From: Escherichia phage BubbaBully
DNA length: 51,209 nt
Strand: one strand, 5' to 3'
Sequence record: OR896831.1
Both the position numbers and the translations under genes were made by a program. The stretch's first letter is position 1, and each line of letters starts with the position of its first letter. This document shows positions 1,573 through 49,478 of this stretch, piece after piece. The notes under the pieces were generated by a model. The model saw nothing but the letters and a program-made list of their open reading frames with translations, was not told the origin of the DNA and did no database searches.

Positions 1573-1587
1573 CACGAATTGCTAAAA
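1569..1587 (+). promoter_or_regulatory. conserved 19-bp box (ATAGCACGAATTGCTAAAA), copy without the canonical -10 arrangement
   Basis: Exact box sequence; TAG stop of terL lies inside the box; followed by a terminator hairpin instead of the usual 22-bp spacer plus -10. Confidence 0.5.
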
Positions 1588-1601
1588 GCGTGTACAATAA
1601 A

Positions 1602-1625
1602 GGCTGGACTTTTCCAGCCTTTTTT
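1602..1625 (+). terminator. intrinsic terminator-like hairpin between terL and portal
   Basis: GGCTGGA-cttt-TCCAGCC stem followed by T6. Confidence 0.55.
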
Positions 1626-1643
1626 ATTATGGGAGATCAGATA

Positions 1644-5807: not shown

Positions 5808-5835
5808 TTGCACGTTTAACAAAAAGTGCTATCAT
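5808..5835 (+). promoter_or_regulatory. sigma70-like promoter for major capsid gene (TTGCAC-16-TGcTATCAT)
   Basis: -35 TTGCAC 5808-5813, 16-bp spacer, extended -10 TG-n-TATCAT 5827-5835; the reversed box lies within the spacer and -10. Confidence 0.45.
5815..5832 (-). promoter_or_regulatory. conserved box, reversed orientation, overlapping capsid promoter
   Basis: TTTAACAAAAAGTGCTAT is the reverse complement of the box; followed by 8-bp hairpin 5839-5859 and strong RBS. Confidence 0.5.
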
Positions 5836-9528: not shown

Positions 9529-9547
9529 TTTTAACAAAAAGTGCTAT
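9529..9547 (-). promoter_or_regulatory. conserved box, reversed orientation, in tail-operon leader
   Basis: TTTTAACAAAAAGTGCTAT immediately upstream of the RBS of gene G. Confidence 0.5.
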
Positions 9548-21681: not shown

Positions 21682-21724
21682 ACAGCACAAATAGCTAAAC
21701 AAATGAAAATGGAGGTGTTATAAT
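21682..21724 (+). promoter_or_regulatory. degenerate box promoter with extended -10 inside a hairpin loop
   Basis: ACAGCACAAATAGCTAAAC matches the box at 15 of 19 positions; TGtTATAAT 21716-21724 lies in the loop of ATGGAGG/CCTCCAT (21709-21732). Confidence 0.45.
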
Positions 21725-21758
21725 GCCTCCATCAAGTAAACAAAGAGAGGGTTTTAAA

Positions 21759-27392: not shown

Positions 27393-27458
27393 ATTTAAAT
27401 TCTCCTAAATATCACGTTTTGTTAATGACAAGCTGGATTATAGCATTGCGCAAGGCAT

Positions 27459-27481
27459 AAAAAAACCCCGCCGTAGCGGGG
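27459..27481 (-). terminator. intrinsic terminator after primase gene
   Basis: CCCCGC-cgta-GCGGGG preceded on + strand by A7 (U-run on - strand). Confidence 0.6.
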
Positions 27482-27496
27482 CAAGAAAGCAATGGT

Positions 27497-28453
27497 TTAC
27501 CGTGTCGGGAGTAAAGTTTCCGGCTTGTAAAGCTTTCGCTCTATCCCTTGCCGGAAATTATCGTTAATGGGGAGCATCACGTCAAGCCCTCTCTCCTCAG
27601 CGGCGATTATTACATCCTGATCGGTTGACTTACACACCACGCGCATCTTGCGATCTCCTTTGTATCGGTGCGCAACAATCTCAACGTTATAACTTGAGAA
27701 GCAAGCCCACACCTCTTGGCCTGTAGACAGGTGTATGTGTTGAGCATCGACCCAATCAACGCACAGATAGATCGTGTTGTCAGTCTTACCAGTCACCGCA
27801 ACAGAGCCTCGCGTATAGTCCTTTGCATAAAAAATCTTCTCTCCTAACTCGTCAATCATGAGGATGTTACACATTTCATCATCAAGACCATCGTCATTCA
27901 CGAGGTAGCAAGGGATTGCGTGAATAAGCGACTCTCCGCCATTCTCCAGCGTTTTCACGCCTACAGAGTACATTTCATCATCTGGCGGCGCGATGCCCTC
28001 AAAAACGCTTAGGGGAGTTTTAGGCACGCCTTTCGTTCTTTCCATTACTGCAACACAGTTTTCATGCGGAGCCTGTGAACCGAAAGAGTAACCTGATGCG
28101 CGGGAGGCTCGCTTGTTTGCCTTGACTATATACTCCTGCGGAACCTTTCCGAGAAAGCGGCCTAAAATGTTGATACACTCGCTATAAGGCTCACCAGTTA
28201 GCTTCATTAACCAGCCAATGCCGCTATCATTTCCGCAACCGTTGCACACTGCGCCTCCGTCGCCGTCAGTGCTAAGTTTGTCAGTCCAACGGAATCGGTC
28301 TTTCCCTCCGCAATGAGGGCATGGCTGGTGTTTCTTGTTGAAAACGTCATTACTCAAACCGCAAATGCTTTGAAGCGCATCGCGCCACATTCCTTTCATG
28401 TACGGCAATACATCCTCTTTCTGAAACATCATGTTTGGGTGTACTTCTTGCAT
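27497..28453 (-). CDS. DNA primase (zinc-ribbon type)
   Basis: CPHCGGKDRFRW...CNGCG zinc-binding motif; start set at ATG 28453 with GGAGA RBS (track ORF uses TTG at 28465). Confidence 0.6.
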   Translation of the reverse strand: MQEVHPNMMFQKEDVLPYMKGMWRDALQSICGLSNDVFNKKHQPCPHCGGKDRFRWTDKLSTDGDGGAVCNGCGNDSGIGWLMKLTGEPYSECINILGRFLGKVPQEYIVKANKRASRASGYSFGSQAPHENCVAVMERTKGVPKTPLSVFEGIAPPDDEMYSVGVKTLENGGESLIHAIPCYLVNDDGLDDEMCNILMIDELGEKIFYAKDYTRGSVAVTGKTDNTIYLCVDWVDAQHIHLSTGQEVWACFSSYNVEIVAHRYKGDRKMRVVCKSTDQDVIIAAEERGLDVMLPINDNFRQGIERKLYKPETLLPTR

Positions 28454-28510
28454 GGCTTTCTCCAATAAAAAATCGCGTAGCCGGATGATACCAGATACGC
28501 GATCTTTGGT

Positions 28511-28964: not shown

Positions 28965-29008
28965 ATAGCACTTTTTGCTAAAAACATTCAAAACGTAGGC
29001 GCTATTAT
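28965..29008 (+). promoter_or_regulatory. box promoter (box + 22-bp spacer + TATTAT) for helicase gene
   Basis: ATAGCACTTTTTGCTAAAA 28965-28983; -10 TATTAT 29003-29008; 32 nt upstream of the helicase start. Confidence 0.55.
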
Positions 29009-31529: not shown

Positions 31530-31979
31530 ATGAAAAAACAAATTGTAGGCGCTGCGATAATAATCGCATCTGTATTGGTGGCATGGAAAGCACCATCATT
31601 AATAGAGAGCATGGTTAAAGATCCGATTGACATTGATCTTAATCGAAAGGCTTGCATTATGGCATCAAAGAAATCAGTTAATGATTTCGTTATCACTAAC
31701 GAATATGAACTAAGCGATAAGGCAAGGCGAAAGGCTTATCTTGTTATTTCTCAGCAGTGTAAGCTTTCTGTTTATTCCGAGAACGGAGAGCACGCAAGAG
31801 AGCCTAAAACCTTAAAAACAGCAGGAAGTATGTTTATTGATGGACTTGATTATGAGGAATCATTGACGGTTCGATATGCCAAAAAGCGCTCAGACTTTAA
31901 CGGAAAAATTGTTGCAAAAATGGGAGTCAAGGAAGTCTCAAAGTGGATAGAAAACTTTGAGGACGCAAACAGAAAATAG
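31530..31979 (+). CDS. hypothetical exported protein (N-terminal signal peptide / anchor)
   Basis: 149 aa; hydrophobic N-terminal segment IVGAAIIIASVLVAW. Confidence 0.5.
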   Translation: MKKQIVGAAIIIASVLVAWKAPSLIESMVKDPIDIDLNRKACIMASKKSVNDFVITNEYELSDKARRKAYLVISQQCKLSVYSENGEHAREPKTLKTAGSMFIDGLDYEESLTVRYAKKRSDFNGKIVAKMGVKEVSKWIENFEDANRK

Positions 31980-32019
31980 CACGAATTGCTAAAACGCCGG
32001 ATGATGAATCCGGCATAAT
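31976..32019 (+). promoter_or_regulatory. box promoter (box + hairpin + CATAAT)
   Basis: Box overlaps TAG stop; 7-bp stem GCCGGAT/ATCCGGC 31996-32014; -10 at 32014-32019. Confidence 0.55.
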
Positions 32020-33420: not shown

Positions 33421-33464
33421 ATAGCACTTTTTGTTAAAAATGCCCGGCGAAAGTCGGGCATAAT
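33421..33464 (+). promoter_or_regulatory. box promoter (box + hairpin + CATAAT)
   Basis: Box begins directly after TAA stop; stem GCCCGGC/GTCGGGC; -10 at 33459-33464. Confidence 0.55.
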
Positions 33465-33706: not shown

Positions 33707-33944
33707 GCAAGGCCGCGAGGCCGTTTGGAATCACGCCAAAGAAACAGGAATGGCAGACGATATAGCACGAATTGCTAAAATATTTGATCTGGCTGATGTT
33801 AGTATTATCAGCAACGGGAAAATGACTTACTTACACGAGAGGCCGCGCAAAATGCACCGTGTGCCAGCAATCCCGACAAAAATCGACTTCAAAGAAGCAA
33901 TGGCAAAAATCAGAGAGCCGAAAAAGTATTACAAAGGAGAATAG
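33696..33944 (+). CDS. hypothetical protein (contains an in-frame copy of the box)
   Basis: 82-aa ORF; codons for IARIAK are the box sequence. Confidence 0.5.
   Translation: MKVEQGREAVWNHAKETGMADDIARIAKIFDLADVSIISNGKMTYLHERPRKMHRVPAIPTKIDFKEAMAKIREPKKYYKGE
33762..33805 (+). promoter_or_regulatory. intragenic box promoter (box + 22 bp + TG-n-TAGTAT)
   Basis: Exact box inside CDS 33696-33944 with extended -10 at 33797-33805. Confidence 0.45.
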
Positions 33945-38665: not shown

Positions 38666-38693
38666 CTTAAAGTCTCCTTGTTGGTTGACCCGT

Positions 38694-38737
38694 ATTATAG
38701 GTCAACCATCTTACAGCCTTTTAGCAATTCGTGCTAT
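38694..38737 (-). promoter_or_regulatory. box promoter (box + 22 bp + TATAAT in hairpin loop)
   Basis: Box 38719-38737 overlaps TAG stop of upstream gene; TATAAT 38694-38699 in loop of GGTTGACC/GGTCAACC. Confidence 0.55.
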
Positions 38738-38979
38738 TTTAAACGTTCAACTTTTGCAAGCAATCTTCCATCTACAATGCTATGGCACTCAAGAGTTTCT
38801 GGATCGAAGTCTAGCGATCGATGGAATGAGTGACCAATCAGCAGATATCCGCCGCGCTGCCTTACCTGATAAACCGTTTCTCCTACTGAGAAAAGCGATA
38901 TGTCGCTAAACGTCACACGGAATCGGTTTTGAGCCATGCTCTTTGGAATGTGTTTTGTGTACTCTACGCCTTGAATCAT
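38734..38979 (-). CDS. hypothetical protein
   Basis: 81-aa ORF, ATGA overlap with upstream gene. Confidence 0.5.
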   Translation of the reverse strand: MIQGVEYTKHIPKSMAQNRFRVTFSDISLFSVGETVYQVRQRGGYLLIGHSFHRSLDFDPETLECHSIVDGRLLAKVERLK

Positions 38980-39341
38980 GAGTATTTCGCCTCGAACAAG
39001 TAAGCCCCACCAGCAGAGAAACCAACCTCCTCGCGGTACAGAGTAAAGCGGTCTCCGTCCTCGTCAAACACATAACCTGCAACGCCACCCAGTACGCGCC
39101 CTTGCTCGATCTGGTAGCGCTTGCCAGCCTTAAACGTTTTCTTGTGCTTCATGCTATGGTCTACCCAAGTGCATTTAATTGTTTTGGTTTTGATTTCTCG
39201 GAAATCGTTAAAATTTGCGTGCTCCCACTTTGAGCCTTTGGTTAATTCCTTAACCTGGAAAGCTCCAGTTTCAAAGAATTGAATCTCGTCAACAATTCGA
39301 CCTTTCATTAGTTTATTGTCGGCGTTGCGGATAACTTTCAT
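38976..39341 (-). CDS. hypothetical protein
   Basis: 121-aa ORF. Confidence 0.5.
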   Translation of the reverse strand: MKVIRNADNKLMKGRIVDEIQFFETGAFQVKELTKGSKWEHANFNDFREIKTKTIKCTWVDHSMKHKKTFKAGKRYQIEQGRVLGGVAGYVFDEDGDRFTLYREEVGFSAGGAYLFEAKYS

Positions 39342-39523
39342 TATTTGCTCCTTATATTTGAATAAGCTTTCAAAGTGTCAATCAATTTATCTTTGCCGCG
39401 TGCTGAAACCCTAAAACCAGCATATTGTTCGAATCTTTGTTTTGCCTCCTTCACTGAAAGCCCTTTGTTTTCAAGGGCATATATTAAGCTGGTGCAAATC
39501 TTGTTTAAGCCTTTGACCTTCAT
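39341..39523 (-). CDS. hypothetical protein
   Basis: 60-aa basic ORF downstream of a box promoter. Confidence 0.45.
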   Translation of the reverse strand: MKVKGLNKICTSLIYALENKGLSVKEAKQRFEQYAGFRVSARGKDKLIDTLKAYSNIRSK

Positions 39524-39553
39524 TTATTATCCTCAATTCGTTTCGTTGAGATA

Positions 39554-39597
39554 ATAATAGCGGATCTTATCGACCCGCTTTTAACAAAAAGTGCTAT
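39554..39597 (-). promoter_or_regulatory. box promoter (box + hairpin + TATTAT)
   Basis: Box 39579-39597 (- strand), stem AGCGG/CCGCT, -10 at 39554-39559. Confidence 0.55.
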
Positions 39598-39681
39598 TTA
39601 CAGAAAGGGCATGAGCTTTTATCTCCACTCCCTCCGTGGTGAGGGCAGCAAATTTTTTCGATTGGTGTCATGTTGTTCTCC

Positions 39682-40395
39682 TTATTTTGAATTAGCCAGC
39701 CATACAGCAATCGCCAGGCCGCGTGGAGTTAGTGAGCGAATCAGTTTTGTTCTCTCTGATTTGCCGCCTAATTTCTTCCAGCCTGGATTGTCGTTTCCTA
39801 CTGGATCAACTGGTAGCGGTTCAGGCATTACAAATCCGTTTCCCGTCCAAAGACATGTATTCTTATTGTATGCGTCGCTCGCCGGAATAATGTCAGGGAA
39901 GGCTGGGTGCGCCTCGTCTTTCAAATGAATGTAGCCGCCATAGTCGCACGGATGGAATTTGTGATCCGGCTTGCGCCATAGCGTTGACAGCTTGCCTACA
40001 GGGTTTTCGATCATGTACGGAGCGCCAAAATGATCAGCAATCTCCGCCGCAATCTTGCAGGTAGCTGCCGCTTTAACCTGGAAATCTGGATCGATCTCAG
40101 CTTTGCGCTTCCAGTGGCGCGAGCCTGAGTTTGCCAGGTCTGTACATGGAGGAAACGCCATAACAAAATCAGGCTTACCCCAAAGCAGGTTACATGCGCT
40201 CACCTTGAAATCGTCGTCAATCCATGCGTTAACATAGCGAATGTTGGGATGCGTTACGCGCACTGATTGGTACGAGCCGTGATCACCTTCATCGGCATTG
40301 AAACAGATAACCTTGTAACCAGCTTTAGCCCACGGCAGCGCCGCGTAGCCGGAACCGTCGAACATTGAGAAAACAAGACCTTTGATGTTGTTCAT
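39682..40395 (-). CDS. compact C5-cytosine methyltransferase-like protein
   Basis: 237 aa; motif I-like FDGSGYAALPWAKAG, PC motif FPPCTDLANSG, ENV-like motif ENPVG; no obvious target-recognition domain. Confidence 0.5.
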   Translation of the reverse strand: MNNIKGLVFSMFDGSGYAALPWAKAGYKVICFNADEGDHGSYQSVRVTHPNIRYVNAWIDDDFKVSACNLLWGKPDFVMAFPPCTDLANSGSRHWKRKAEIDPDFQVKAAATCKIAAEIADHFGAPYMIENPVGKLSTLWRKPDHKFHPCDYGGYIHLKDEAHPAFPDIIPASDAYNKNTCLWTGNGFVMPEPLPVDPVGNDNPGWKKLGGKSERTKLIRSLTPRGLAIAVWLANSK

Positions 40396-40405
40396 TTCTT
40401 AATCC

Positions 40406-40630
40406 TCAGAATGGGAAGCAACGATTGCAAGCTGGATCAAATTCACAGCCGCAGTCATTCACAATCATTGTTGGATCAGCAAACGCCGCGCCGCTCTCCA
40501 TATCCATATCCATATCGCCAAGCGCCTCGTCAAGCGTGCGCAGTTTATAAGCAACCTCAAGCGCTGCCTCTTTGTTCAGTCCAGCAGCTTCCGCCTCTTG
40601 CAGACGGGCAAAGAAACCATCTTGTGACAC
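40406..40630 (-). CDS. small acidic protein with C-terminal Cys cluster
   Basis: 74 aa ending NDCGCEFDPACNRCFPF. Confidence 0.45.
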   Translation of the reverse strand: MSQDGFFARLQEAEAAGLNKEAALEVAYKLRTLDEALGDMDMDMESGAAFADPTMIVNDCGCEFDPACNRCFPF

Positions 40631-40684
40631 AATTCACTCCTTTAAAACTGGCGGCGCAATTGCCGCCTTTAAACCAATCAGGGG

Positions 40685-40915
40685 TTACCAAGCTTTCCAC
40701 GTTTCGATATACATCGAATTTTCATCCAGGAAATCGATCACATCCTGCTTGCTATACTGGCGCAGCGTGCAGCGCGGCGACGTTCCAACGGTATAGCAGC
40801 CTTTACCCTCGGTGATGGTCACTTGCTTGATTTTCTCACCTGGGATGTCGCACTTGATGATCACGCGGTGGTGGCTATCCAGGGTTTTCATGATGTTTTC
40901 GGTTTTGAGTTTCAT
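40685..40915 (-). CDS. hypothetical protein
   Basis: 76-aa ORF downstream of a box promoter. Confidence 0.5.
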   Translation of the reverse strand: MKLKTENIMKTLDSHHRVIIKCDIPGEKIKQVTITEGKGCYTVGTSPRCTLRQYSKQDVIDFLDENSMYIETWKAW

Positions 40916-40946
40916 ACGTTTGTCCTCGTTTGTTGTCGATGGCGCT

Positions 40947-40990
40947 ACTATACCAGGCCGCAGCGCCGGAGTTTTAACAAAAAGTGCTAT
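40947..40990 (-). promoter_or_regulatory. box promoter (box + 22 bp + TG-n-TATAGT in hairpin loop)
   Basis: Box 40972-40990; TATAGT at 40947-40952 within GGCGCT/AGCGCC hairpin. Confidence 0.55.
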
Positions 40991-41068
40991 CAGTTCCAGA
41001 ATGAGTGGCGGGGCGCACGTTTACCATCACCGCCGTAGTGGTCATTGGAAACAGCAATCATCCAGGCG

Positions 41069-41350
41069 TTAGCGAATATCAGCAGTCGCATAAATCACCC
41101 CTTTAATCTTCTTGATCTCGTCAACTAACTCTTGCTCGTTGTGAATCATGGCGGGTGAGCACTCCCAACAAGCTGATGGCAGTTTCTTGTTCTTGCCCTT
41201 AATCAGAAATCCGCCCATCAACTCCCAATTACAGATAAGGCGATCATCACGCACATCGTACAGGTTAAACAGATTGCGACGCTCGCCGCCAACGTAAATC
41301 TTCATTCCATTATTGCGGCAGAATCCGCGTAATTCTTTCGTAACTCGCAT
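41069..41350 (-). CDS. hypothetical Cys-containing protein
   Basis: 93-aa ORF with CxxC-like pairs. Confidence 0.5.
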   Translation of the reverse strand: MRVTKELRGFCRNNGMKIYVGGERRNLFNLYDVRDDRLICNWELMGGFLIKGKNKKLPSACWECSPAMIHNEQELVDEIKKIKGVIYATADIR

Positions 41351-41544
41351 TATTCACTCTCCAGTACAGTAACAGGATCCAGGCGCTCCAGCACAACTTT
41401 GAAGTCGGCAAAGAATGTCGGCCTACGTTCGGTTAACTCCGTATAGGTGTCAGTCGCCAGCGTTGCGCGATCACCTTCATAGCACACCACACGCTTTCCG
41501 TTCTCGCGGCTGATTGCCACCACGCGATATGTGTTTTTGGTCAT
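41350..41544 (-). CDS. hypothetical protein
   Basis: 64-aa ORF, TAATG coupling to the downstream gene. Confidence 0.45.
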   Translation of the reverse strand: MTKNTYRVVAISRENGKRVVCYEGDRATLATDTYTELTERRPTFFADFKVVLERLDPVTVLESE

Positions 41545-41562
41545 GCGTTACCTCCTGGTTGG

Positions 41563-41841
41563 TTAAAAGCATTGAGGGCAAGAGCTTGCGATAAACTTGA
41601 TCACATTGCGCAGTTGGCGCTCGTCAAAGATTGTCGCTGGCAATTCCTCTTTCACTTCCTGGCGCAGATAAACGTTGCCGTGCCATGTGAGCTTGTCGTG
41701 TTCAATGCGATAGCTGCACATCCATTCACAATCGTTGTCAGCCTCCCAAATGCAAAGAGCGGTGTAGTCGCCCAAGTCCTCAACGGTCAATTCAATGCCG
41801 CGTTTCTTTGCCATGTTGAAAGTGGTCTTGCTGATGTTCAT
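41563..41841 (-). CDS. hypothetical Cys-rich protein
   Basis: Start set at ATG 41841 (GAGGAA RBS); first gene of the leftward accessory block. Confidence 0.5.
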   Translation of the reverse strand: MNISKTTFNMAKKRGIELTVEDLGDYTALCIWEADNDCEWMCSYRIEHDKLTWHGNVYLRQEVKEELPATIFDERQLRNVIKFIASSCPQCF

Positions 41842-41872
41842 AGTAAATTCCTCAGTTCGTTTCGATGAATGC

Positions 41873-41916
41873 ATTATGCCGAAATCAGATCAGTCTGTTT
41901 TAGCAAAAAGTGCTAT
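41873..41916 (-). promoter_or_regulatory. box promoter (box + 22 bp + CATAAT) driving the leftward accessory block
   Basis: Box 41898-41916; -10 at 41873-41878; CA-rich leader. Confidence 0.55.
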
Positions 41917-41994
41917 TTAATCGGTAGTCAGTGATTTTGATGATTGCTTGACCAGTTTTGTAAGGTTGTTTTTGATGCCCGTCAACTTTTGTGT

Positions 41995-42035
41995 GATTGT
42001 GATGATTGTTGATTAGATTTGATTGGATTTGATTG
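41995..42035. repeat. iteron-like array of GATTG direct repeats
   Basis: GATTG at 41995, 42004, 42021, 42031 and GATTA at 42011, spaced 7-10 bp, in the AT-rich divergent region. Confidence 0.5.
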
Positions 42036-42503
42036 TGGGAATCAGCATGGCCTGACGATGCCGTTTTTGCGCTCTCTAAAACTCCACTCTGTTATCTTCT
42101 GTTTACAATCGTTTCCTCTTGTTACCAAAAGTACGGTGGCGTAGTTTGTTCGCGTTTTTCGCGTGGCAGAAACAAAAAAAAACTTTTAATCTCCCTATAA
42201 ACAACTAATAAAATCAATAGTTTATTTTATATATATTATATTTGTTTTCACTACGTTATACTTGTTCCATATGGTATAGGGTGGTTATGGGATTTTATTA
42301 TTGGTGGTATTGGTTAATTTATAGGCATGTTCCGCTCAGGATGTTTACGATTCATCATTTCGTTGTGGTTGCTTTGGGTGACATATACATATTCATTATG
42401 GCCTCCGAAAAAACTGTAACGGCTGTAACATGCAAAAAACAGAATTTATCATCATGTAAATCAACAACTTACGACAAATTTTGTTTTTCGGCTCAAAAAA
42501 AAC

Positions 42504-42532
42504 TTGTGGAAACCGATTGTAACATGCATAAT
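42504..42532 (+). promoter_or_regulatory. sigma70-like promoter (TTGTGG-17-CATAAT) for first rightward early genes
   Basis: Hexamers with 17-bp spacer and upstream A-tract; no box; CA-rich leader before ATG 42565. Confidence 0.45.
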
Positions 42533-42564
42533 GCACACCGAAATGAACAAACGGAGGTAAAACG

Positions 42565-42990
42565 ATGTCAGATCAATCATTTGGCGATCAATTGCGTGCA
42601 GCGGCACGAATGCTGGCGAGCGGCGAGCGTGACGAAATCATCATGACCGACTACCAGTTACAGCAAGCGTCGGGAAAGGAGAAAATCAACCCAAGCCATA
42701 TCCGTACAACTATGGCGCGAGAGGTTCGCACCTTGGGAGCTATCAGCGTGAAGCGAATCACGGATCCGGTTGGATACGTTTGCACGTTCAACCCTGACCC
42801 AAAGAAACGAGCGATTGCCAGCGACGAGCTACCAGCAATCAAGGCGCGTGCGGCAAACAAGGCTCTAAAATCAATCGCTGAGGTGATGCCGAGCCTAACA
42901 GACCTGCAAGGCGAGCAGCTACAGGGAGCAATGATTGCAATTCAGCGCTACCAGGATTTAATAAAGAAGCAAATCAACGAGGAGGTTTAA
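42565..42990 (+). CDS. hypothetical early protein
   Basis: 141-aa first ORF of rightward early block; weak HTH-like segment. Confidence 0.5.
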   Translation: MSDQSFGDQLRAAARMLASGERDEIIMTDYQLQQASGKEKINPSHIRTTMAREVRTLGAISVKRITDPVGYVCTFNPDPKKRAIASDELPAIKARAANKALKSIAEVMPSLTDLQGEQLQGAMIAIQRYQDLIKKQINEEV

Positions 42991-42992
42991 TT

Positions 42993-43253
42993 ATGTGCAA
43001 CGAGAAAATCGATCAGCTTGTGGACGAAATCATTGAGACGCACGACCGCGCCGGATTCAACTCTATCTTTATGGTGTGCCCTGACGCGTGCGGCGTGACA
43101 GAAATCGAGCTTAAAGAAGCGGTTGAGCAGGTGGAGTCCGTGCTTCGAACCGATAACCCTGGTGACGAAATCTTTGCGGCCTTGACCGCTTGTGATGGTG
43201 GCGGAGTGTTTGCCCTTTCGTTTGTTAACGCAAACACGATCCTGACCATCTGA
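42993..43253 (+). CDS. small acidic early protein
   Basis: 86 aa, rich in Asp/Glu; second gene after the canonical early promoter. Confidence 0.5.
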   Translation: MCNEKIDQLVDEIIETHDRAGFNSIFMVCPDACGVTEIELKEAVEQVESVLRTDNPGDEIFAALTACDGGGVFALSFVNANTILTI

Positions 43254-43260
43254 TCGGTAA

Positions 43261-43304
43261 ATAGCACTTTTTGTTAAAAACGCCCCGCGCGAGTGGGGCA
43301 TAAT
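43261..43304 (+). promoter_or_regulatory. box promoter (box + hairpin + CATAAT)
   Basis: Box 43261-43279; stem GCCCC/GGGGC; -10 at 43299-43304. Confidence 0.55.
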
Positions 43305-43334
43305 GCACCCAACGAAACAACACGGAGAAATGAA

Positions 43335-43529
43335 ATGGCTATCAGATTCAACGCTGACTACCCAGGCTTTAAATCTGGCAAGACCTATCAGGCAAAATAT
43401 GCAGCGCACCCATTCTACGGCTACCTTGCAATCAAGGTTGTAGACGATGACGGCGACACGCGATACCTGGCGCTTAATCTGCTTGAGGACGGCTCAATCG
43501 TGGAGGTTGATGAAGATGAAGATCACTAA
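43335..43529 (+). CDS. small acidic protein
   Basis: Start at ATG 43335 after GGAGA RBS; 64 aa ending VEVDEDEDH. Confidence 0.45.
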   Translation: MAIRFNADYPGFKSGKTYQAKYAAHPFYGYLAIKVVDDDGDTRYLALNLLEDGSIVEVDEDEDH

Positions 43530-43866
43530 TCAAGCGCGAAACTATGCATTGAAGCACGGAGTGCATGTCTACGGACTGACAAACGAGCAAAGCCGCGCCC
43601 TGGTTTTCTACGATATCGCCAGCGGCACAAAGCTATGCACTTACAAGAGCTACAGCGATGATAACCCATTGCAGAAGTCGCTCAACTACAAGATGAAGCC
43701 GGAAACCTGGCAAGCGATGCCGGATGATATCCGCACGGCTCAGGGTGTGCAGAAAGCAATTGAGGCGATGGTTGCAACTGGCACGGCTCGACTGCTGGAC
43801 GAGGACGAGCTAGCGGAAGCACGCAACAAGATCCTCAAGCGGTCAACGGGAGTTGAGATCCTATGA
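43516..43866 (+). CDS. hypothetical protein
   Basis: Start at ATG 43516, 8 nt after GGAGG; 116 aa. Confidence 0.5.
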   Translation: MKITNQARNYALKHGVHVYGLTNEQSRALVFYDIASGTKLCTYKSYSDDNPLQKSLNYKMKPETWQAMPDDIRTAQGVQKAIEAMVATGTARLLDEDELAEARNKILKRSTGVEIL

Positions 43867-43958
43867 GCAACTTCCACAACGAGCACGTCATGCAGTGGTG
43901 GCGGCATCGCGTAAAGAATTTCGAACTGTATCGCCACGAGTGGAAATTTAGCGAATAG
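43863..43958 (+). CDS. small basic protein (31 aa), not in ORF track
   Basis: ATGA overlap with upstream stop; TAG stop lies inside the next box. Confidence 0.3.
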   Translation: MSNFHNEHVMQWWRHRVKNFELYRHEWKFSE

Positions 43959-43998
43959 CACGAATTGCTAAAAACTTGATCGGGTGTGCTGGTATAGT
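43955..43998 (+). promoter_or_regulatory. box promoter (box + 22 bp + TG-n-TATAGT in hairpin loop)
   Basis: Box 43955-43973; TATAGT 43993-43998 inside GGGTGT/ACACCC hairpin. Confidence 0.55.
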
Positions 43999-44030
43999 AC
44001 ACCCATCAACAACGAACCAAGGACTTAACA

Positions 44031-44198
44031 ATGAAATCTCGTAAATATCGCAACATCTTCAACAACCTGGCCTACTGGCTGGAGGACGGAGCTGTAATGG
44101 TTAGCAACGGCGAGCAAACAAAGAAATCGCTGTTAAGCGCAGAGGAGTTTTTCATTGCGGTCGCTCGTGACATTCTGGTGCTGATCGAGGAGGAATAA
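44031..44198 (+). CDS. small acidic protein (55 aa), not in ORF track
   Basis: ATG after CA-rich leader and AAGGA RBS; ends 3 nt before next ATG. Confidence 0.4.
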   Translation: MKSRKYRNIFNNLAYWLEDGAVMVSNGEQTKKSLLSAEEFFIAVARDILVLIEEE

Positions 44199-44201
44199 TA
44201 C

Positions 44202-44444
44202 ATGCTTTCAATTCGCAACTGGTTTATGCGTTTCATCGGAAAAGAGGTTGAGGCTTTCGGGATCAACATTCCGGCAAACTTCAAGCGCGCTTGCCCTGGA
44301 AACGCGGCTGGTGTGTATTGGGAAATGCCGGACGGCACATACTGGTTCACAATTTGCTCAGGATACAAGATGGAAGTAAGCCAGCGAGACTATGAGCGCG
44401 GAACATTCTTTAAAGCAATGCAAGAAATCGGGGAGGAGTTTTGA
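44202..44444 (+). CDS. hypothetical protein
   Basis: 80-aa ORF. Confidence 0.5.
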   Translation: MLSIRNWFMRFIGKEVEAFGINIPANFKRACPGNAAGVYWEMPDGTYWFTICSGYKMEVSQRDYERGTFFKAMQEIGEEF

Positions 44445-44611
44445 AGTTCTATCGCAACCCAACGATTCACGGACTGATTTACTTTATCAAGGACGGTAAA
44501 GCTATGTACTTTCCTGCTGGTTCGCCTTGGACTGAGGCTGAGGAATCAGGGCTAACTGCTCAGCAACTGCAACTAGGAATTATCTCAGGCGTATTTGTGG
44601 AGGCTAACTAA
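44441..44611 (+). CDS. possible small protein (TTG start at 44441 or ATG at 44504), not in ORF track
   Basis: Open frame fills the 166-bp gap and ends in TAATG overlap with the next gene; start codon uncertain. Confidence 0.25.
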   Translation: MKFYRNPTIHGLIYFIKDGKAMYFPAGSPWTEAEESGLTAQQLQLGIISGVFVEAN

Positions 44612-45147
44612 TGATTAAATTTGAGCTTTGGGGTCACACATACCATCTGCGCGGCACTTATGGTGTCGCAATTGTAGACCTGGACGGCACACTATCGGAC
44701 GGCACGCATCGCTTGCACTTGCTGCCAACGAAAGACCTGCACCTAACTGAAAGCTGGAGCGAGTTTAACAGGGCGGCGCAGAATGACGCGCCAATCCAGG
44801 ATACGATTGATATCGTCAACGCACTTTGGAAGGCGGGAATGGGCGTGGTTATCCTGACTGGTCGCAGTGACGAGGTTGAAACAGACACTATCCTTTGGCT
44901 AGACCGCCACAAGGTGAAATATGACTGGCTTATCATGCGCCGCTCCGAGGATAACCGCAAGGACACAGTTATCAAAGAAGAGGTGTTGCGTGCAATCGGT
45001 CTGCAGTACATTACGTGCGCCTTTGATGATTCGCCAAACGTGATCAAGCATTTCCGCAGCCTGGGGGTTACGACCTATCAGGTAACGGAATACGACAAGC
45101 CGCACGCTAGTTTGCAGAGTCACGGCGTGGAGGAGTTGAGCAAATGA
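44611..45147 (+). CDS. HAD-superfamily phosphatase (polynucleotide-kinase-phosphatase-like)
   Basis: 178 aa with DxDGT motif (VDLDGTL) near N-terminus. Confidence 0.6.
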   Translation: MIKFELWGHTYHLRGTYGVAIVDLDGTLSDGTHRLHLLPTKDLHLTESWSEFNRAAQNDAPIQDTIDIVNALWKAGMGVVILTGRSDEVETDTILWLDRHKVKYDWLIMRRSEDNRKDTVIKEEVLRAIGLQYITCAFDDSPNVIKHFRSLGVTTYQVTEYDKPHASLQSHGVEELSK

Positions 45148-45359
45148 TTATCACGCACAACGTAGAGCCGAGCGCAAACACCGCACAGGATATGATTGCT
45201 GGAATGCCGCCAAAATCGCACAGAATGGTGCGTGTGTGGGGATTTCAGGGCAATGTAAGCCAAACGCTCAAGGAAATTTTAGCCCTGCCAGAAGTCGATG
45301 CAGCGCTTGTGGGGGTGCATACAAATGAATATGTTTCTTTCCACATCGTGACAAAATAG
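45144..45359 (+). CDS. hypothetical protein
   Basis: 71-aa ORF; TAG stop inside the next box. Confidence 0.45.
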   Translation: MIITHNVEPSANTAQDMIAGMPPKSHRMVRVWGFQGNVSQTLKEILALPEVDAALVGVHTNEYVSFHIVTK

Positions 45360-45399
45360 CACGAATTGCTAAAACGCGCTCCGAGAGGGGCGCTATAAT
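45356..45399 (+). promoter_or_regulatory. box promoter (box + hairpin + TATAAT)
   Basis: Box 45356-45374; imperfect stem GCGCTCC/GGGGCGC; TATAAT 45394-45399. Confidence 0.55.
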
Positions 45400-45430
45400 G
45401 CACCCATACCAACCAACGAGGGAAAACAAA

Positions 45431-45664
45431 ATGCGAGCAAAGATTAAAGCAACTGGCGGCTACACCGGAATGAAAAACGTCAAGCTTCCGCTGACACTAA
45501 AAGCGGTTTCCAGTGGTTATGGCACGGTCGATGTTAGCCTTGCCGAGTTGATTTATCACGGCTACGACTTTGCAGCAGGACAGGCAGACGAGATCCCGGA
45601 CTGCGAATTTAATTCTCAGACACTGACTTTCATTATTGGCGTAGAGGCGGAGATTGTAGAATGA
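45431..45664 (+). CDS. hypothetical protein
   Basis: Start at ATG 45431 after GAGGGAAAA RBS; 77 aa. Confidence 0.45.
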   Translation: MRAKIKATGGYTGMKNVKLPLTLKAVSSGYGTVDVSLAELIYHGYDFAAGQADEIPDCEFNSQTLTFIIGVEAEIVE

Positions 45665-45894
45665 AATATCAGATCTTTAAGGCAGTAGACAAAATCGACG
45701 GCGAGCTTTCACTTTTCCTCTTTGACGAGGAGAACGGCTACACAGTCATTGACTATTCACCGGAAATGATGGGGCGCTTGATTAGTGATATCAAGGCTGG
45801 CGGCAGTTGCCACTGGAGCGATAACGAAGGAGAAACTTCGCGCCGTGATGATATGCTTGATGCGGTCTTAATGTGTGAGTTCGAGGCTGAATAA
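45661..45894 (+). CDS. small acidic protein
   Basis: 77-aa ORF, ATGA overlap. Confidence 0.45.
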   Translation: MKYQIFKAVDKIDGELSLFLFDEENGYTVIDYSPEMMGRLISDIKAGGSCHWSDNEGETSRRDDMLDAVLMCEFEAE

Positions 45895-46085
45895 TGAAGT
45901 GCATCCGGTCAACATACGATCTATTCAAGGCGGGTGAAAGTTACCCGCTCATTGAGAAAGGCCAGGTCGGGCGGTTCACGGTATACGAATACACCGACGT
46001 GCAAGGTTGGGTTTATACTTTCGGACTCGACGAGAACGGAGAGAACGAAACAGACGGCAATTTCATGAAGTTTACAAAGGAGTAA
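45894..46085 (+). CDS. hypothetical protein
   Basis: 63-aa ORF, TAATG overlap. Confidence 0.45.
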   Translation: MKCIRSTYDLFKAGESYPLIEKGQVGRFTVYEYTDVQGWVYTFGLDENGENETDGNFMKFTKE

Positions 46086-46146
46086 CACAATGATTGAGAA
46101 CAAATTCAGCGGCAACAAAGACGACGCAGAGATCACAGAGTTCTAA

Positions 46147-46191
46147 ATAGCACTTTTTGCTAAAGACTTTCCGCAAGGCCATTGGTATAGT
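46147..46191 (+). promoter_or_regulatory. box promoter (box + 23 bp + TG-n-TATAGT in hairpin loop)
   Basis: Box ATAGCACTTTTTGCTAAAG 46147-46165; TATAGT 46186-46191 within AAGGCCA/TGGCCTT hairpin. Confidence 0.55.
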
Positions 46192-46229
46192 GGCCTTATT
46201 GAAAGCAACCACGCAAACAGGAGATAAAA

Positions 46230-46385
46230 ATGCGTAACTTTGAGAAAATCCGCACCAACAAAGACCGCCGCGCCGCTGGTGAGATTGTGGACTCACACCG
46301 TCGCCGCAAGAAAACTCAAAAACGCGGTAGTGCGGCAAAGCGCATGGATTGGGATCAACTTCAAACTAACTACAGGTCTAAATAA
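46230..46385 (+). CDS. small basic protein (51 aa), not in ORF track
   Basis: ATG after CAGGAGA RBS; Arg/Lys-rich; TAATG overlap with next gene. Confidence 0.4.
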   Translation: MRNFEKIRTNKDRRAAGEIVDSHRRRKKTQKRGSAAKRMDWDQLQTNYRSK

Positions 46386-46573
46386 TGTTTACACTACGTG
46401 ACCACAGCGAATTGCAGGGCAAAACGGCGGAGTACCTCCGCCAACTTGCAGACGACATAGAGAGCGGTAAAGTGTGCGTTGACCGCATGACCATCGAATC
46501 ATCAATCGAATGGTTCAAGATCGAGAAGCGCGAAATCATCATTAACACAATGGAGGCAACTGACAATGAGTAA
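46385..46573 (+). CDS. hypothetical protein
   Basis: 62-aa ORF. Confidence 0.45.
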   Translation: MFTLRDHSELQGKTAEYLRQLADDIESGKVCVDRMTIESSIEWFKIEKREIIINTMEATDNE

Positions 46574-47135
46574 AAAGGTTATTATTCTCAACGCTCCACC
46601 AGGTGCAGGTAAAGACACCATCGGAAATCTGATTTGCAAGCACGCGCCGCGATACGTTGTTAAGCGCTCATTCAAAGAGCCGATGTTTAAGATCGCTAAG
46701 GCAATGCTGGGCGATTATCGTTTCGGCCTGTTTATGCAAGCGTATGAAGACAGGGAGCAGAAAGAAAAAGCGCAACCTTTCCTGAATGGTAAATCACCTC
46801 GCCAGTTTATGATCTGGATTAGCGAGGATGTGATAAAACCTCAGTTTGGGGATCAGTATTTCGGCGTAGTCATGGCTGAGGCGGTGCGAGATAGTCAAGT
46901 TCCGGTTGTTATCACTGACGGCGGTTTTCCTGATGAAGTCAAGCCACTGGTCAGTGCAGGGATTCAGGTAAACATTTGCCGCCTACATCGAGACGGATAC
47001 ACGTTTGATGGTGATAGCCGGAATTACCTAAACCTTGAGGGCTACCATCACCGAATCGTGACGCGAGATTACATTCTTGTGCATGGCGATCCGATGCATA
47101 CCGTAGACCATATTTGTGAGGATGTTCTCAAATGA
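46566..47135 (+). CDS. dNMP-kinase-like P-loop kinase
   Basis: 189 aa; N-terminus KKVIILNAPPGAGKDT resembles the T4 gp1 deoxynucleotide monophosphate kinase P-loop (recollection). Confidence 0.55.
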   Translation: MSKKVIILNAPPGAGKDTIGNLICKHAPRYVVKRSFKEPMFKIAKAMLGDYRFGLFMQAYEDREQKEKAQPFLNGKSPRQFMIWISEDVIKPQFGDQYFGVVMAEAVRDSQVPVVITDGGFPDEVKPLVSAGIQVNICRLHRDGYTFDGDSRNYLNLEGYHHRIVTRDYILVHGDPMHTVDHICEDVLK

Positions 47136-47235
47136 TATCAACGCCGCAAGATCCGAAAGAGCCTTTCAACGCGCACAAGGCGCTAATGGTTCTACTGACC
47201 ATCATGATAATCGGTTACACTGTAAGGGGTATTTT

Positions 47236-47433
47236 ATGGCTGGTAACACACTGAAAACTATCGGCGCAGTCCTGTTAATCGTTGGCGGCTCACTGCTTAC
47301 TGAGCCAGGTTTCTTTAACTCAGTAGGCACATTTGCGGTGTTGTGTGGCGGTCTTATCGGCGGCTACATGGACGGCAGGAGAGCTGGGCGGCGCGAGGCT
47401 TTCGGCGGTGAAGATAAAAATCCGATAAAATAG
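47236..47433 (+). CDS. small membrane protein
   Basis: Start at ATG 47236 (AAGGGG RBS) within track ORF 47116-47433; two hydrophobic segments. Confidence 0.4.
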   Translation: MAGNTLKTIGAVLLIVGGSLLTEPGFFNSVGTFAVLCGGLIGGYMDGRRAGRREAFGGEDKNPIK

Positions 47434-47473
47434 CACGAATTGCTAAAACTTCCGCGAGGGCATTTGGTATAGT
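47430..47473 (+). promoter_or_regulatory. box promoter (box + 22 bp + TG-n-TATAGT in hairpin loop)
   Basis: Box 47430-47448 overlapping TAG stop; TATAGT 47468-47473 within GAGGGCA/TGCCCTC hairpin. Confidence 0.55.
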
Positions 47474-47515
47474 GCCCTCATTGAAGCAAAGCAACCAATC
47501 AAAGGAGATAACGAA

Positions 47516-47794
47516 ATGGCTACTATCCGCAAACACCTTGTAAACGCATTCGAAAACGTAGGCAAGGAGTATGGCTGGGATGATGGACTGAAAACACCGT
47601 ACACGGCACGCCGCCAGGGATTCAACTCTTTGAGAGAATGGGCGCGTTGCATGGCTGCAAACTACATGCCTGAAAATCATATTCTCATGCCGGATTCGCT
47701 GCTAGAAATGATCGAAGATGCACAGCGAGCAGGTATTCCACTGACTCAACATGATTTCGACGCATACGCAGAGGAGGAAGTAAACGCATGGTGA
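47516..47794 (+). CDS. hypothetical protein
   Basis: 92-aa ORF with AAAGGAGA RBS. Confidence 0.5.
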   Translation: MATIRKHLVNAFENVGKEYGWDDGLKTPYTARRQGFNSLREWARCMAANYMPENHILMPDSLLEMIEDAQRAGIPLTQHDFDAYAEEEVNAW

Positions 47795-48000
47795 GCGACA
47801 AGCCGGAATCGGTCAAAATCCGCACTGATTATGACGGCTCGCCGTGGATTAAGGCCGGAAAGGTTTACGACGCAACGCTTGAGAAATCGGGCAAGTTTGC
47901 AGGGTGTTACAAAGCTGGTGGGGAATTGGGTTCCCCATTTTACACAAGGCTGAAAAATTCAGTTCACTTAAACGGTAAAGATTGGGAGATTGTAGAATGA
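47788..48000 (+). CDS. hypothetical protein
   Basis: 70-aa ORF. Confidence 0.45.
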   Translation: MVSDKPESVKIRTDYDGSPWIKAGKVYDATLEKSGKFAGCYKAGGELGSPFYTRLKNSVHLNGKDWEIVE

Positions 48001-48611
48001 AATATGTAAAACCAACGACAAGCGGTTTCGGTTACACGGCTGGCAAACTATATCAGATCCTGTTGACCTATGAGGGCGGTCAATTTGTTGTTAAGAACGA
48101 CAAAGGGGTTAATCAGATTATTCGCGGCGACGGCAAGCCGTCATTACGGTTAGAGCGTGGCGGAAAGTTTGAGATTGTGGATATTCCAGAACCTGGCGAG
48201 GCTCAAGAGTACGCAGTTGAAACAGCAAAAAAGACAAGCGAGGCTCTACGCGAGCACGTCAAAGGGATTGTGAAAGATTCTATTGTTAGCGCGGCGTTGC
48301 CTGGTGGCGTGCTTCATAAGGCAGTAAGCGAAAGCGATCACTTGCGAGCAGTGCGCCAAATCGCAGCAAACGCAACAGAGCTTGCAAGCGAGATTGCATC
48401 AGGTCGATATGATGCAAGTCTCTATATGAGACTTGAAAAGGCAGAACGCGAGGCGGAGCAGCACAAAGCGGATTGCATCAAAGCGGAAGCAATTGTTGAT
48501 CAGCTTTATGACATATTCCCGCAGGTGCGCAATCCAGAGCAATTGATTGCAGCAGTTCGCAGTTCGAAAATCTTTGCTGATGCGTTTTTGGAACTGCAAA
48601 AGGTTAAATAG
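47997..48611 (+). CDS. hypothetical protein
   Basis: Start at ATG 47997 overlapping upstream stop; 204 aa. Confidence 0.5.
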   Translation: MKYVKPTTSGFGYTAGKLYQILLTYEGGQFVVKNDKGVNQIIRGDGKPSLRLERGGKFEIVDIPEPGEAQEYAVETAKKTSEALREHVKGIVKDSIVSAALPGGVLHKAVSESDHLRAVRQIAANATELASEIASGRYDASLYMRLEKAEREAEQHKADCIKAEAIVDQLYDIFPQVRNPEQLIAAVRSSKIFADAFLELQKVK

Positions 48612-48651
48612 CACTTTTTGTTAAAGCTTCCGCGAGGACATTTGTTAAAGT
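48608..48651 (+). promoter_or_regulatory. box promoter (box + 22 bp + TAAAGT in hairpin loop)
   Basis: Box 48608-48626 overlapping TAG stop; TAAAGT 48646-48651 within GAGGACA/TGTCCTC hairpin. Confidence 0.5.
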
Positions 48652-48685
48652 GTCCTCATTGAAGCGAAACACGGAGATTTAGGAA

Positions 48686-48895
48686 ATGGCTGTATACACT
48701 GGCAAGATGTTTGAAAGCGAAAACCCGATTTACGGCGGCACTTATGAGCTAATCATTGATGAAGATCGCGTAATTCTGGCTGATGACTATAACCAAGAAT
48801 ATTACGAAGTAGAAGCCGATAAATGGGATGACGACGTTATGTTTCTTGTTGATAATAGCCGCATCAAGTTTTATGCAGTGGAGGAAGAAGAATGA
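48686..48895 (+). CDS. small highly acidic protein
   Basis: 69 aa, Asp/Glu-rich, ends VEEEE. Confidence 0.5.
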   Translation: MAVYTGKMFESENPIYGGTYELIIDEDRVILADDYNQEYYEVEADKWDDDVMFLVDNSRIKFYAVEEEE

Positions 48896-49143
48896 TCACA
48901 ATTAACCTATCAGAAGAACAAGCGAAATCATTGTTGCGCGGCCTGGGCTGGCGAATGGGTAGCGGTAGCGAGGCGGTTGTAAACATCAAAGAGGAAGTAG
49001 CAAGAGAGCTTTTTGCACAGCTTGAGCATAAACTGATGCCAGCCTCAACAAGCGCGGCGGAGCTTGCTGTGTGGCGGCATGAAAACGGCCTTAATGAAAT
49101 GGATGTTGAGAAGTGGAAGCGTAAAAACGAGGTGATGAAATGA
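48892..49143 (+). CDS. hypothetical protein
   Basis: 83-aa ORF, ATGA overlap. Confidence 0.45.
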   Translation: MITINLSEEQAKSLLRGLGWRMGSGSEAVVNIKEEVARELFAQLEHKLMPASTSAAELAVWRHENGLNEMDVEKWKRKNEVMK

Positions 49144-49478
49144 TTTATATTCATAGCTACGGTGTCGGCAAGTTTGGCAACAAACAGATCCGAAATATTC
49201 ACGACACGCTCGATGAAGCAATGGCACAGCAACGCGTTTTAGGTGGAGTGGTTAAGGCGTTTGAGTCAGTGGAAAACTTAGAAAGCGAATGGATGGAGCG
49301 CGAGCACATAAAGGATTTGATTGTTGATGAGGTGTCATGCCTGATTGACGATCTCACAACTGACGCGCCAGGCTCGCCGCGAAACTATGAGCATGGTTCG
49401 TCTCAGTGGGATAGCTGGAAGGTTAAAACGCTTAACAACCTCCGCAATATCCTTGATGGAAAATTTAACGAAATTTAA
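49140..49478 (+). CDS. hypothetical protein
   Basis: 112-aa ORF, ATGA overlap. Confidence 0.5.
   Translation: MIYIHSYGVGKFGNKQIRNIHDTLDEAMAQQRVLGGVVKAFESVENLESEWMEREHIKDLIVDEVSCLIDDLTTDAPGSPRNYEHGSSQWDSWKVKTLNNLRNILDGKFNEI

Follow-up and report, generated by a model that had tools for sequence, protein, structure and literature searches.

We report here that the 51,209-nucleotide (nt) sequence of Escherichia phage BubbaBully (record OR896831.1), which was analyzed at its full length and is called the window below, contains a class of promoters built on a 21-nt repeat, the box, and that inverted repeats of conserved geometry and variable sequence adjoin the box in most cases where a co-directional gene lies upstream. 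A promoter of this kind with its hairpin occupies most gaps between genes of the phage. These dyads fold, their pairing is under selection, the pairing signals lie on the sense strand and their presence is linked to read-through from the upstream gene. We favor the view that they are RNA stem-loops of sense read-through transcripts, not DNA structures or operators. The phage is a T1-like siphovirus (Drexlerviridae, Tempevirinae, Henuseptimavirus), and its nearest records, at about 85-90% identity, are Escherichia phages JohannLBurckhardt and IsaakIselin, Henu7, Enterobacter phage AS5 and Klebsiella phage Samwise.

The box core, ATAGCAC-N3-TTG(C/T)TAAA, occurs in 20 perfect copies in the window, and with up to 3 mismatches allowed there were 26 matches where 3.0 were expected. 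This element has been published as a 21-nt direct repeat, aaATAGCACnnnTTGnTAAAA, in phages TLS, T1, Rtp and Rogue1, where it is intergenic and oriented with transcription; its authors stated its role to be open in 2024, the options being a stoperator, an enhancer site or an UP-like element (PMC11447400). Their paper gave neither a fixed spacing of the repeat to a -10 or start site nor systematic stem-loops, both of which are described here. Three of the hairpins appear there only as separate predicted terminators, T52, T57 and T62, which adjoin the repeat in TLS and were called by ARNold (PMC11447400). To this question the present analysis adds the placement of the repeat at a fixed -42 of a promoter class missed by standard scans, strand-specific evidence that the adjoining dyads are selected RNA structures, and their link to read-through, none of which is in that paper, the one report of the repeat that we found; the dyads themselves are already explained by a known kind of element, discussed below.

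Architecture of the box promoters

The window copies were aligned on the box together with 120 IMG/VR loci bearing it. A -10-like hexamer lay exactly 20 nt past the box in 154 of the 189 non-identical instances, and a logo of 171 promoters showed the remaining features. The box spans -52 to -31 and holds the palindrome TAGCA-N5-TGCTA, with TAGCA at -49 to -45, TGCTA at -39 to -35 and its center at -42. It is followed by an extended -10 (TATAAT at -12 to -7, with G at -14 in 81% of promoters) and then by C at -1 in 83% and A at +1 in 86%. Because C(-1)A(+1) lies 7 nt past the -10, where a start site would be expected, we take it to be the likely start. The leader is A-rich, with a Shine-Dalgarno sequence (SD) at about +13 to +17 and the start codon at about +25; the stop codon of the upstream gene falls within or just ahead of the box, and the gap from gene to gene is very tight. 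No -35 hexamer was found at 16-18 bp from the -10, and a standard -35/-10 scan detected none of the box promoters. The TTGYTA of the box was considered as a -35 hexamer and rejected, since at 22 bp from the -10 it cannot serve as one. The discriminator (-6 to -1) of the box promoters is C-rich, with C at -4 in 50%, at -3 in 65% and at -1 in 83%, and this holds even for promoters of class 1 (defined below), in which it does not pair with the spacer; in read-through RNA it might pair with the SD downstream.

Stem-loops at the box promoters

Measured against dinucleotide shuffles, 14 of the 22 box sites in the window folded at z <= -1.9, several of them at z of about -5 (Table 1). A larger set of 222 non-identical box promoters was drawn from the window, from six close relatives and from IMG/VR contigs, with shuffles and random 35-mers of the window as controls; these promoters are phylogenetically related, and raw p-values obtained from them are inflated. 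For the 177 promoters with a co-directional upstream gene, the mean minimum free energy (MFE) of the 35-nt segment was -12.0 kcal/mol, compared with -5.95 for shuffles and -4.8 for random 35-mers, and an MFE of -10 or below was reached by 74% of them versus 9% and 6%, respectively. Chance or base composition is ruled out by these two controls as the source of the dyads.

In a set of 171 unique promoters, stems had their 3' ends most often at -12/-13 and, in a very sharp peak, at -1. In class 1 the hairpin lies between the box and the -10, whereas in class 2 it encloses the -10 and ends at -1, as it does in 46 of the 152 stem-bearing promoters. A column-pair scan that involved no folding found the class 2 register as well, at -24:-1 through -20:-5. 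Some hairpins have an extra outer helix reaching over the start site (47449..47486 and 43977..44008 in Table 1). No known RNA family was detected across the whole window at Rfam gathering thresholds. The coordinates and arm sequences that an initial annotation of this DNA had given for the dyads were all correct, and the two geometric classes that it described are real and sharply defined. Two of its statements need revision. It had given the stems as 5-8 bp, and they are mostly 7-10 bp when G.U pairs are counted; it had assigned a dyad to each promoter, and there is none at 41916(-), 28965(+), 9547(-), 5832(-) or 27409(+) and only a weak one at 31457(+).

Table 1. Boxes and stem-loops of the window. 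MFE in kcal/mol; start positions are predicted.
Position	Strand	Feature	Box	-10 and start	MFE	z	Remarks
31976..31993	+	Box, core of the 21-nt repeat		-10 CATAAT 32014-32019; start ~32026			
31996..32014	+	Class 1, GCCGGAT/ATCCGGC, 7 bp, between box and -10			-13.2	-4.9	
33440..33461	+	Class 1, 9 bp including one G.U, GAAA tetraloop; core 33442-33459	33421-33438		-16.8	-5.0	Same stem, varying loop in orthologues
39559..39579	-	Class 1, AGCGGGTC/GATCCGCT, 8 bp with G.U	39597-39580	-10 39559-39554	-13.3	-4.5	Sole dyad marked terminator-like by a simple scan
43282..43299	+	Class 1, GCCCCGC-GCGA-GTGGGGC	43261-43278	-10 43299-43304; start ~43311	-15.4		Loop GCGA is GAGA in AS5
45376..45393	+	Class 1, GCGCTCC-GAGA-GGGGCGC	45356-45373	-10 45394-45399; start ~45406	-14.2		
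38683..38707	-	Class 2, GGTTGACC/GGTCAACC, -10 in loop	38737-38720	-10 TATAAT 38699-38694	-12.8		Swapped for GTTGCCG/CGGCAAC in BHUENT9 and TLS
40941..40967	-	Class 2, GGCGCT(GC)/(GT)AGCGCC, TGGTATAGT in loop	40990-40973	start ~40940	-15.3		
43977..44008	+	Class 2, GGGTGT/ACACCC (43982-44004), outer helix TTGAT/ATCAA (43977-43981 with 44004-44008) over the start	43955-43972	start ~44005	-18.2		GGGGTT/AACCCC at this site in relatives
46175..46197	+	Class 2, AAGGCCA/TGGCCTT, -10 in loop	46147-46164	-10 TATAGT 46186-46191; start ~46198			Covariation in alignment A1
47449..47486	+	Class 2, GAGGGCA/TGCCCTC (47456-47479), 4-bp outer helix CTTC/GAAG (47449-47452 with 47483-47486)	47430-47447	start ~47480	-15.6		Outer helix spans the start
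48634..48657	+	Class 2, GAGGACA/TGTCCTC, -10 in loop	48608-48625	-10 TAAAGT 48646-48651; start ~48658	-15.7	-5.7	
21709..21732	+	Class 2, TGGAGG/CCTCCA around TATAAT	21682-21699 (degenerate)	-10 TATAAT	-12.7	-5.0	
28467..28501	-	Class 2, ATCGCGTA/TACGCGAT enclosing the -10, then TTTTTT	28527-28510	-10 TATCAT			Full intrinsic terminator wrapped around a -10; TLS orthologue annotated as terminator T57, next to DR10
33789..33817	+	Weaker class 2, GCTGAT/ATCAGC	33762-33779 (within coding region)	-10 at offset 23	-9.3		
41899..41916	-	Box of first leftward promoter, no hairpin, no co-directional upstream gene			-3.2	+0.3	Likewise no hairpin in orthologues in 7 relatives
28965..28982	+	Box of helicase-operon promoter, divergent from opposite-strand gene, no hairpin			0.0		Of 8 diverged orthologous spacers, 0 fold at <= -7

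Stem-loops and the upstream gene

Upstream genes were called by a start-plus-ribosome-binding-site rule; open reading frame (ORF) length alone is noisy, many early genes having fewer than 60 codons. In the window, 14 of the 15 promoters that follow a co-directional gene folded at -7 or below, compared with none of the five that do not (Fisher p = 0.0004), and the exception, 31457, folds weakly here and strongly in relatives. The five promoters without a co-directional upstream gene are those listed above as having no hairpin; 9547(-) and 5832(-) are antisense within the structural module, 41916(-) is the first leftward promoter and 28965(+) is divergent from its neighbor gene. The larger set showed the same relation: 89% of the 177 promoters with such a gene folded at -7 or below versus 40% of the 45 without (p = 6e-11), and all 14 promoters with a clear divergent upstream gene folded more weakly than -7. 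After related spacers had been clustered, a strong hairpin was present in 26 of 37 clusters versus 5 of 18 (p = 0.004). Box, spacing and -10 are identical in the two groups, indicating that the hairpin is not part of the initiation machinery and belongs to RNA that arrives from upstream.

Strand preference of the pairing

Isolated stem mismatches flanked by Watson-Crick pairs were G.T or T.G in 39 cases, A.C or C.A in 6 and of other kinds in 14. As transitions would be expected to yield G.T and A.C equally, the excess of G.T points to pairing in the sense RNA. When G.U pairs were forbidden, the MFE of the sense and antisense strands was equal (-9.2 versus -9.0); when they were allowed, the gain was 2.83 kcal/mol for sense versus 0.44 for antisense (121 versus 26 promoters, p = 2e-19), and composition-matched shuffles leaned the opposite way, with gains of 1.15 for sense versus 1.67 for antisense. 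With one representative taken per cluster, 36 of 306 pairs were G.U on the sense strand versus 9 of 271 on the antisense strand. Loop sequences had the same preference. GNRA or UNCG tetraloops made up 16 of the 40 four-base loops of the sense fold versus 2 of 25 of the antisense fold, and a stem finder that used no energy model gave 7 of 21 loops versus 1 of 21 in the reverse-complement classes. The initial annotation had left the choice between a DNA cruciform and an RNA stem-loop of read-through transcripts; the G.U pairs, the tetraloops and the link to an upstream gene uphold its RNA alternative and speak against the cruciform.

Pairing in orthologous promoters

Orthologous sites were located by flank-anchored BLAST; clustering by similarity of the 5' untranslated region was unusable, paralogous leaders being too alike. 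At the 45356 site, orthologues carry the loops GAGA, GCAA, GCCA or GACA on one stem; most relatives have a class 1 hairpin there, AS5 has a different class 1 hairpin, and three IMG/VR loci (L118, L117 and L066) have one of class 2. At the 40990 site the stem is invariant in 7 relatives, and a 9-nt variable part of the loop differs in four ways. Boxes 46147, 47430 and 48608 belong to a homologous family, whose alignment (A1) comprised 20 distinct sequences. In its 7-bp helix 99.3% of the cells are paired, and shifting the pairing partner lowers pairing to 35-53%. Two pairs of the inner helix have changed on both sides (pair 11/34 is GC or AU, and pair 15/30 is CG, GU, GC or AU), and the covariation score was matched by none of 500 shuffles. 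In the 4-bp outer helix, which joins -29 to -26 with +4 to +7 across the start site, CG and UA are exchanged (13 versus 6 sequences). Where an orthologous hairpin was less than 60% identical to the window copy, it still folded at -10 kcal/mol or below in 16 of 16 cases. Per-site substitution was 0.115 in stems, 0.106 in flanks and 0.20 in loops, values that are uninformative because hairpins that had been partly replaced were mapped on the pair table of the window.

Sequence-specific operators are ruled out as the function of the dyads, since the arms differ at every locus and have been swapped wholesale at orthologous sites with pairing kept. The proposal of the initial annotation that pairing is kept while sequence varies, through selection on structure and not on a sequence-specific operator, is thus borne out by the conserved stems with variable loops, by the compensatory changes and by the folding of all 16 replacements; the covariation across homologous promoters that it suggested looking for was found in alignment A1, as compensatory and G.U-intermediate changes.

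Homology breakpoints at box promoters

We compared positions 30500-51209 (30.5-51.2 kb) of the window with its six closest relatives (L121-L126). Of the 127 alignment ends, 22 lay in box promoter elements, versus 4.9% expected (p = 2e-7), and after collapsing, 11 of 48 breakpoints did so (p = 1.5e-5). Breakpoints at box edges fell at 40995, 41917, 43954, 45351-45355, 46143, 47430 and 48606, and the 39597 promoter is 96-97% identical in three relatives despite differing flanks. Several small genes occur in some of the genomes and not in others, as cassettes flanked by promoters; examples lie around 39361-39683 and 48005-49216.

Discussion

Comparison with known promoter cassettes

Units of promoter plus stem-loop had previously been described only in T4-like phages, as PeSL (promoter-early stem-loop) cassettes (Arbiol et al. 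2010, PMC2839356; Comeau et al. 2014, PMC4122927). In a PeSL, an upstream stop codon, a strong early promoter, a stem-loop, an SD and a start codon are packed into a small intergenic cassette; the stem-loops are variable in sequence, contain G-T pairs and lie mostly between -35 and -10 or overlap the -10; the authors read them as terminators or attenuators of upstream transcription, and one of them lowered reporter expression as strongly as rrnB T1 (PMC2839356, PMC4122927). The box cassettes resemble them closely. They too are compact units, in which about 100 bp hold the stop codon, the promoter, the stem-loop, the SD and the start codon; their stem-loops are unrelated in sequence, contain G-T pairs and lie mostly between an upstream promoter element and the -10 or overlap the -10; many copies lie among small genes of unassigned function; and where close relatives differ by an insertion or a replacement, its boundaries coincide with the cassettes. 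Unlike PeSLs, which have consensus sigma-70 -35 and -10 hexamers with AT-rich sequence upstream, they carry the box over -52 to -31, lack a -35 at 17 bp and have G at -14, and their hosts are unrelated siphoviruses of the Drexlerviridae. PeSLs have also been studied by reporter assay and mini-circle formation, whereas the box cassettes are known here from sequence alone. Since the promoter lacks a -35 and the phage lineage is unrelated, the box cassettes are best described as the Drexlerviridae counterpart of PeSL on a different, box-dependent promoter and not as members of the PeSL family in the strict sense. By this analogy they appear to work like PeSLs, which extends the cassette idea from T4-type myoviruses to an unrelated siphovirus family with a different type of promoter and suggests convergent solutions for insulating and shuffling small early genes.

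A model for the stem-loops

We propose that transcripts from upstream traverse the gap, in which the spacer would form a hairpin of its own (class 1) or pair with the discriminator around the -10, which then lies in the loop (class 2), while RNA initiated at the promoter's own +1 would lack the 5' arm and form no hairpin. The stem-loop would then attenuate or end incoming transcription, or at least define and protect its 3' end, and each small gene cassette would thereby be expressed from its own promoter. In the gap the box, which often includes the stop codon, is followed by a spacer of 20 nt, the -10, a discriminator of 6 nt and a leader of 25 nt. Geometry is conserved because spacer and discriminator are the only positions free of promoter and leader constraint, and the sequence of the hairpin is free because only pairing matters; a 7+4+7 hairpin that fills the spacer would give class 1, and pairing of spacer with discriminator would otherwise give class 2. 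A PeSL-like role in read-through attenuation or 3'-end formation is the most likely one and has in our judgment an even chance of being correct. The association of the hairpins with co-directional upstream genes supports it indirectly.

Several observations, in addition to the relatedness of the promoters noted above, count against such a role. In class 2, only 0-2 T are found in the 8 nt past the stem in 84 of 91 cases, and the loops, at 9-15 nt, are long for terminators; in class 1, the stem is followed only by the -10 hexamer (2-5 T). With most hairpins lacking a U-tract, canonical intrinsic termination is unlikely for at least half of them and is not a general explanation. About 30% of the de-replicated promoter clusters with an upstream gene have no strong hairpin, and for part of the replaced hairpins the cause is probably cassette exchange rather than compensatory evolution in place. 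Our literature search found no transcript map for any T1-like phage, and we infer read-through, start site and 3' ends. A similar search for terminators overlapping promoters found nothing usable. Likeness to intrinsic terminators nevertheless exists: class 1 hairpins have GC-rich stems of 7-9 bp and loops of 4-5 nt with GNRA or UUCG tetraloops, and two families have a T-run and are plain terminators, namely that of 28527, in which TTTTTT follows the enclosed -10 (T57 in TLS), and that of 31457, CCCGC-loop-GCGGG-TTTTG (T62 in TLS). Most box hairpins differ from intrinsic terminators in the missing U-tract, and those of class 2 also in their longer loops.

Alternative explanations

The same RNA stem-loops might act after transcription, as a barrier to 3' exonucleases, as a mark for endonucleolytic processing or as both, without stopping RNA polymerase, a possibility that we hold to be real but the less probable outcome. 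All of the evidence at the RNA level fits it equally. The missing U-tracts and the exchange of class 1 for class 2 suggest that any stable hairpin between stop codon and +1 suffices, and since class 2 stems end exactly at -1, a cut immediately 3' of the hairpin would leave read-through RNA and primary transcripts with identical 5' ends. It is opposed by the real U-tracts in some family members, by the strong termination given by one PeSL stem-loop in a reporter, and by stems of 7-10 bp (11-14 bp with outer helices), which are too short for typical RNase III sites. RNase III sites of T7, REP elements and similar 3' stabilizers are intercistronic RNA hairpins that shape phage and operon mRNA. 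Like them, the box hairpins would lie in polycistronic RNA at gene boundaries near internal promoters, but T7 RNase III sites require a duplex of roughly two helical turns, often interrupted by an internal loop, whereas the box helices are 11-14 bp at most; to judge from the sequences, RNase III processing of the box hairpins is unlikely. A further and more speculative thought, to which we attach little probability, is that the stem-loops mark read-through RNA as opposed to local RNA, by 5'-end-equalizing cleavage or by release without a U-tract, the cassettes being portable linkers that drive gene shuffling in the Drexlerviridae. As the last stem-loop position is -1 in class 2 and falls just ahead of the -10 in class 1, only incoming transcripts would carry the stem-loops; cleavage directed to the start position would then give both classes of transcript one 5' end, or, alternatively, RNA polymerase would be released independently of a U-tract with the help of a phage factor or a box-bound protein. 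Relief of sigma-dependent pausing by the hairpins was dropped as an explanation, the distances of class 1 and class 2 to the pause site being incompatible on inference only.

Explanations at the level of DNA fare worse. Promoters with hairpins or cruciforms exist, those of the N4 virion RNA polymerase and engineered cruciform-regulated promoters among them, and the box dyads share with these an inverted repeat at the promoter and a loop that contains promoter bases. The constant placement of the dyads with respect to the -10, the -10 in the class 2 loop and the partial tolerance of DNA hairpins for G.T mismatches would fit a cruciform or non-template hairpin that tunes initiation, for example as a supercoiling sensor or by presenting a single-stranded -10 as in N4. 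A cruciform, though, needs both strands to fold and is disfavored by pairing signals confined to the sense strand: G.T is common and A.C avoided (39 versus 6), the gain from G.U is 2.83 versus 0.44 and UNCG and GNRA loops are enriched on one strand only. Nor is the structure there whatever lies upstream, as it is missing at first-in-operon promoters and, more generally, at all five window promoters and all 14 related promoters with a divergent or no co-directional gene, which keep box, spacing and -10. The swap between classes at orthologous promoters and an outer helix that reaches transcribed positions +4 to +7 add to the case, and we regard a DNA-level element as very unlikely. Equally slim is the prospect that class 1 hairpins of the opposite strand, followed by the TTTT(A) of the box, are antisense terminators that halt transcription running against gene direction. 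This can be read directly from the sequence, for example in GCCCCACTCGCGCGGGGCGTTTTTAAC opposite 43282-43299, but the sense wobble pairs turn into A.C mismatches in antisense RNA, class 2 hairpins lie at least 7 nt from the T-run, and the T-run belongs to the box with or without a hairpin. Least credible, and in our opinion barely worth entertaining, is an analogy with integron attC sites, single-stranded-DNA recombination signals that mobilize gene cassettes. Strand-specific folding, variable sequence and the clustering of breakpoints at box promoters would suit such signals. Against them, no integrase-type recombinase was seen, the breakpoints lie at the conserved box and not within hairpins, RNA-type tetraloops are enriched, and homologous exchange within the 21-bp box is enough to explain the breakpoints.

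For practical purposes, about 15 promoters and start sites per genome can be annotated in a phage family that is widely used in therapy and in screens of defense systems, and the box cassettes offer constructs for studying attenuation without a U-tract.

The box as a putative activator site

With numbering from the inferred start, a dyad-symmetric site near -41.5 stands in place of a -35 and is followed by a good -10, the arrangement of class II activator promoters, and from this layout the box promoter would be of an activator (class II-like) type. The first rightward gene, 42565-42990 (+), is itself box-less and has a sigma-70-type promoter, TTGTGG-17-CATAAT. Its product is a DUF7174 protein (Pfam E = 1e-32) with homologues in 201 T1-like phage records. 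The AlphaFold model (pLDDT 78) has the order helix-strand-helix-helix-strand-strand followed by two long C-terminal helices, a winged-helix-like topology; a Foldseek search of the PDB gave no significant match, and the non-significant ones were mostly winged-helix proteins. The DUF7174 protein is a candidate for a box-binding activator.

Other boxes and the central non-coding region

Within 1569-1626 (+), a perfect box directly follows an ORF of 523 amino acids, which synteny identifies as the terminase large subunit. A canonical terminator, AAAGGCTGGA-CTTT-TCCAGCCTTTTTT, occupies the usual place of the -10 at 20 nt, and the box is apparently promoterless. The boxes at 9530-9547 (-) and 5815-5832 (-) are minus-strand copies within the plus-strand structural module, with no hairpin at either. 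The former has a good extended -10 (TGGTAGAGT) at 20 nt, is conserved in IMG/VR loci L120 and L107 and may be an antisense promoter. At 27409-27470 (+) a degenerate box with 2 mismatches, conserved in L001 and L046, diverges from gene 25254-27392(-); a short RNA transcribed from it would be antisense to the terminator of gene 27497-28465(-). The divergent early arms are separated by a 640-bp non-coding region, 41917-42560, which contains the direct repeats TGATTTTGATG (three copies, at 41932, 41967 and 41994) and TGTAACATGCA (two copies, at 42424 and 42518) and an AT palindrome at 42223-42241; it may be an origin, an immediate-early control region or both.

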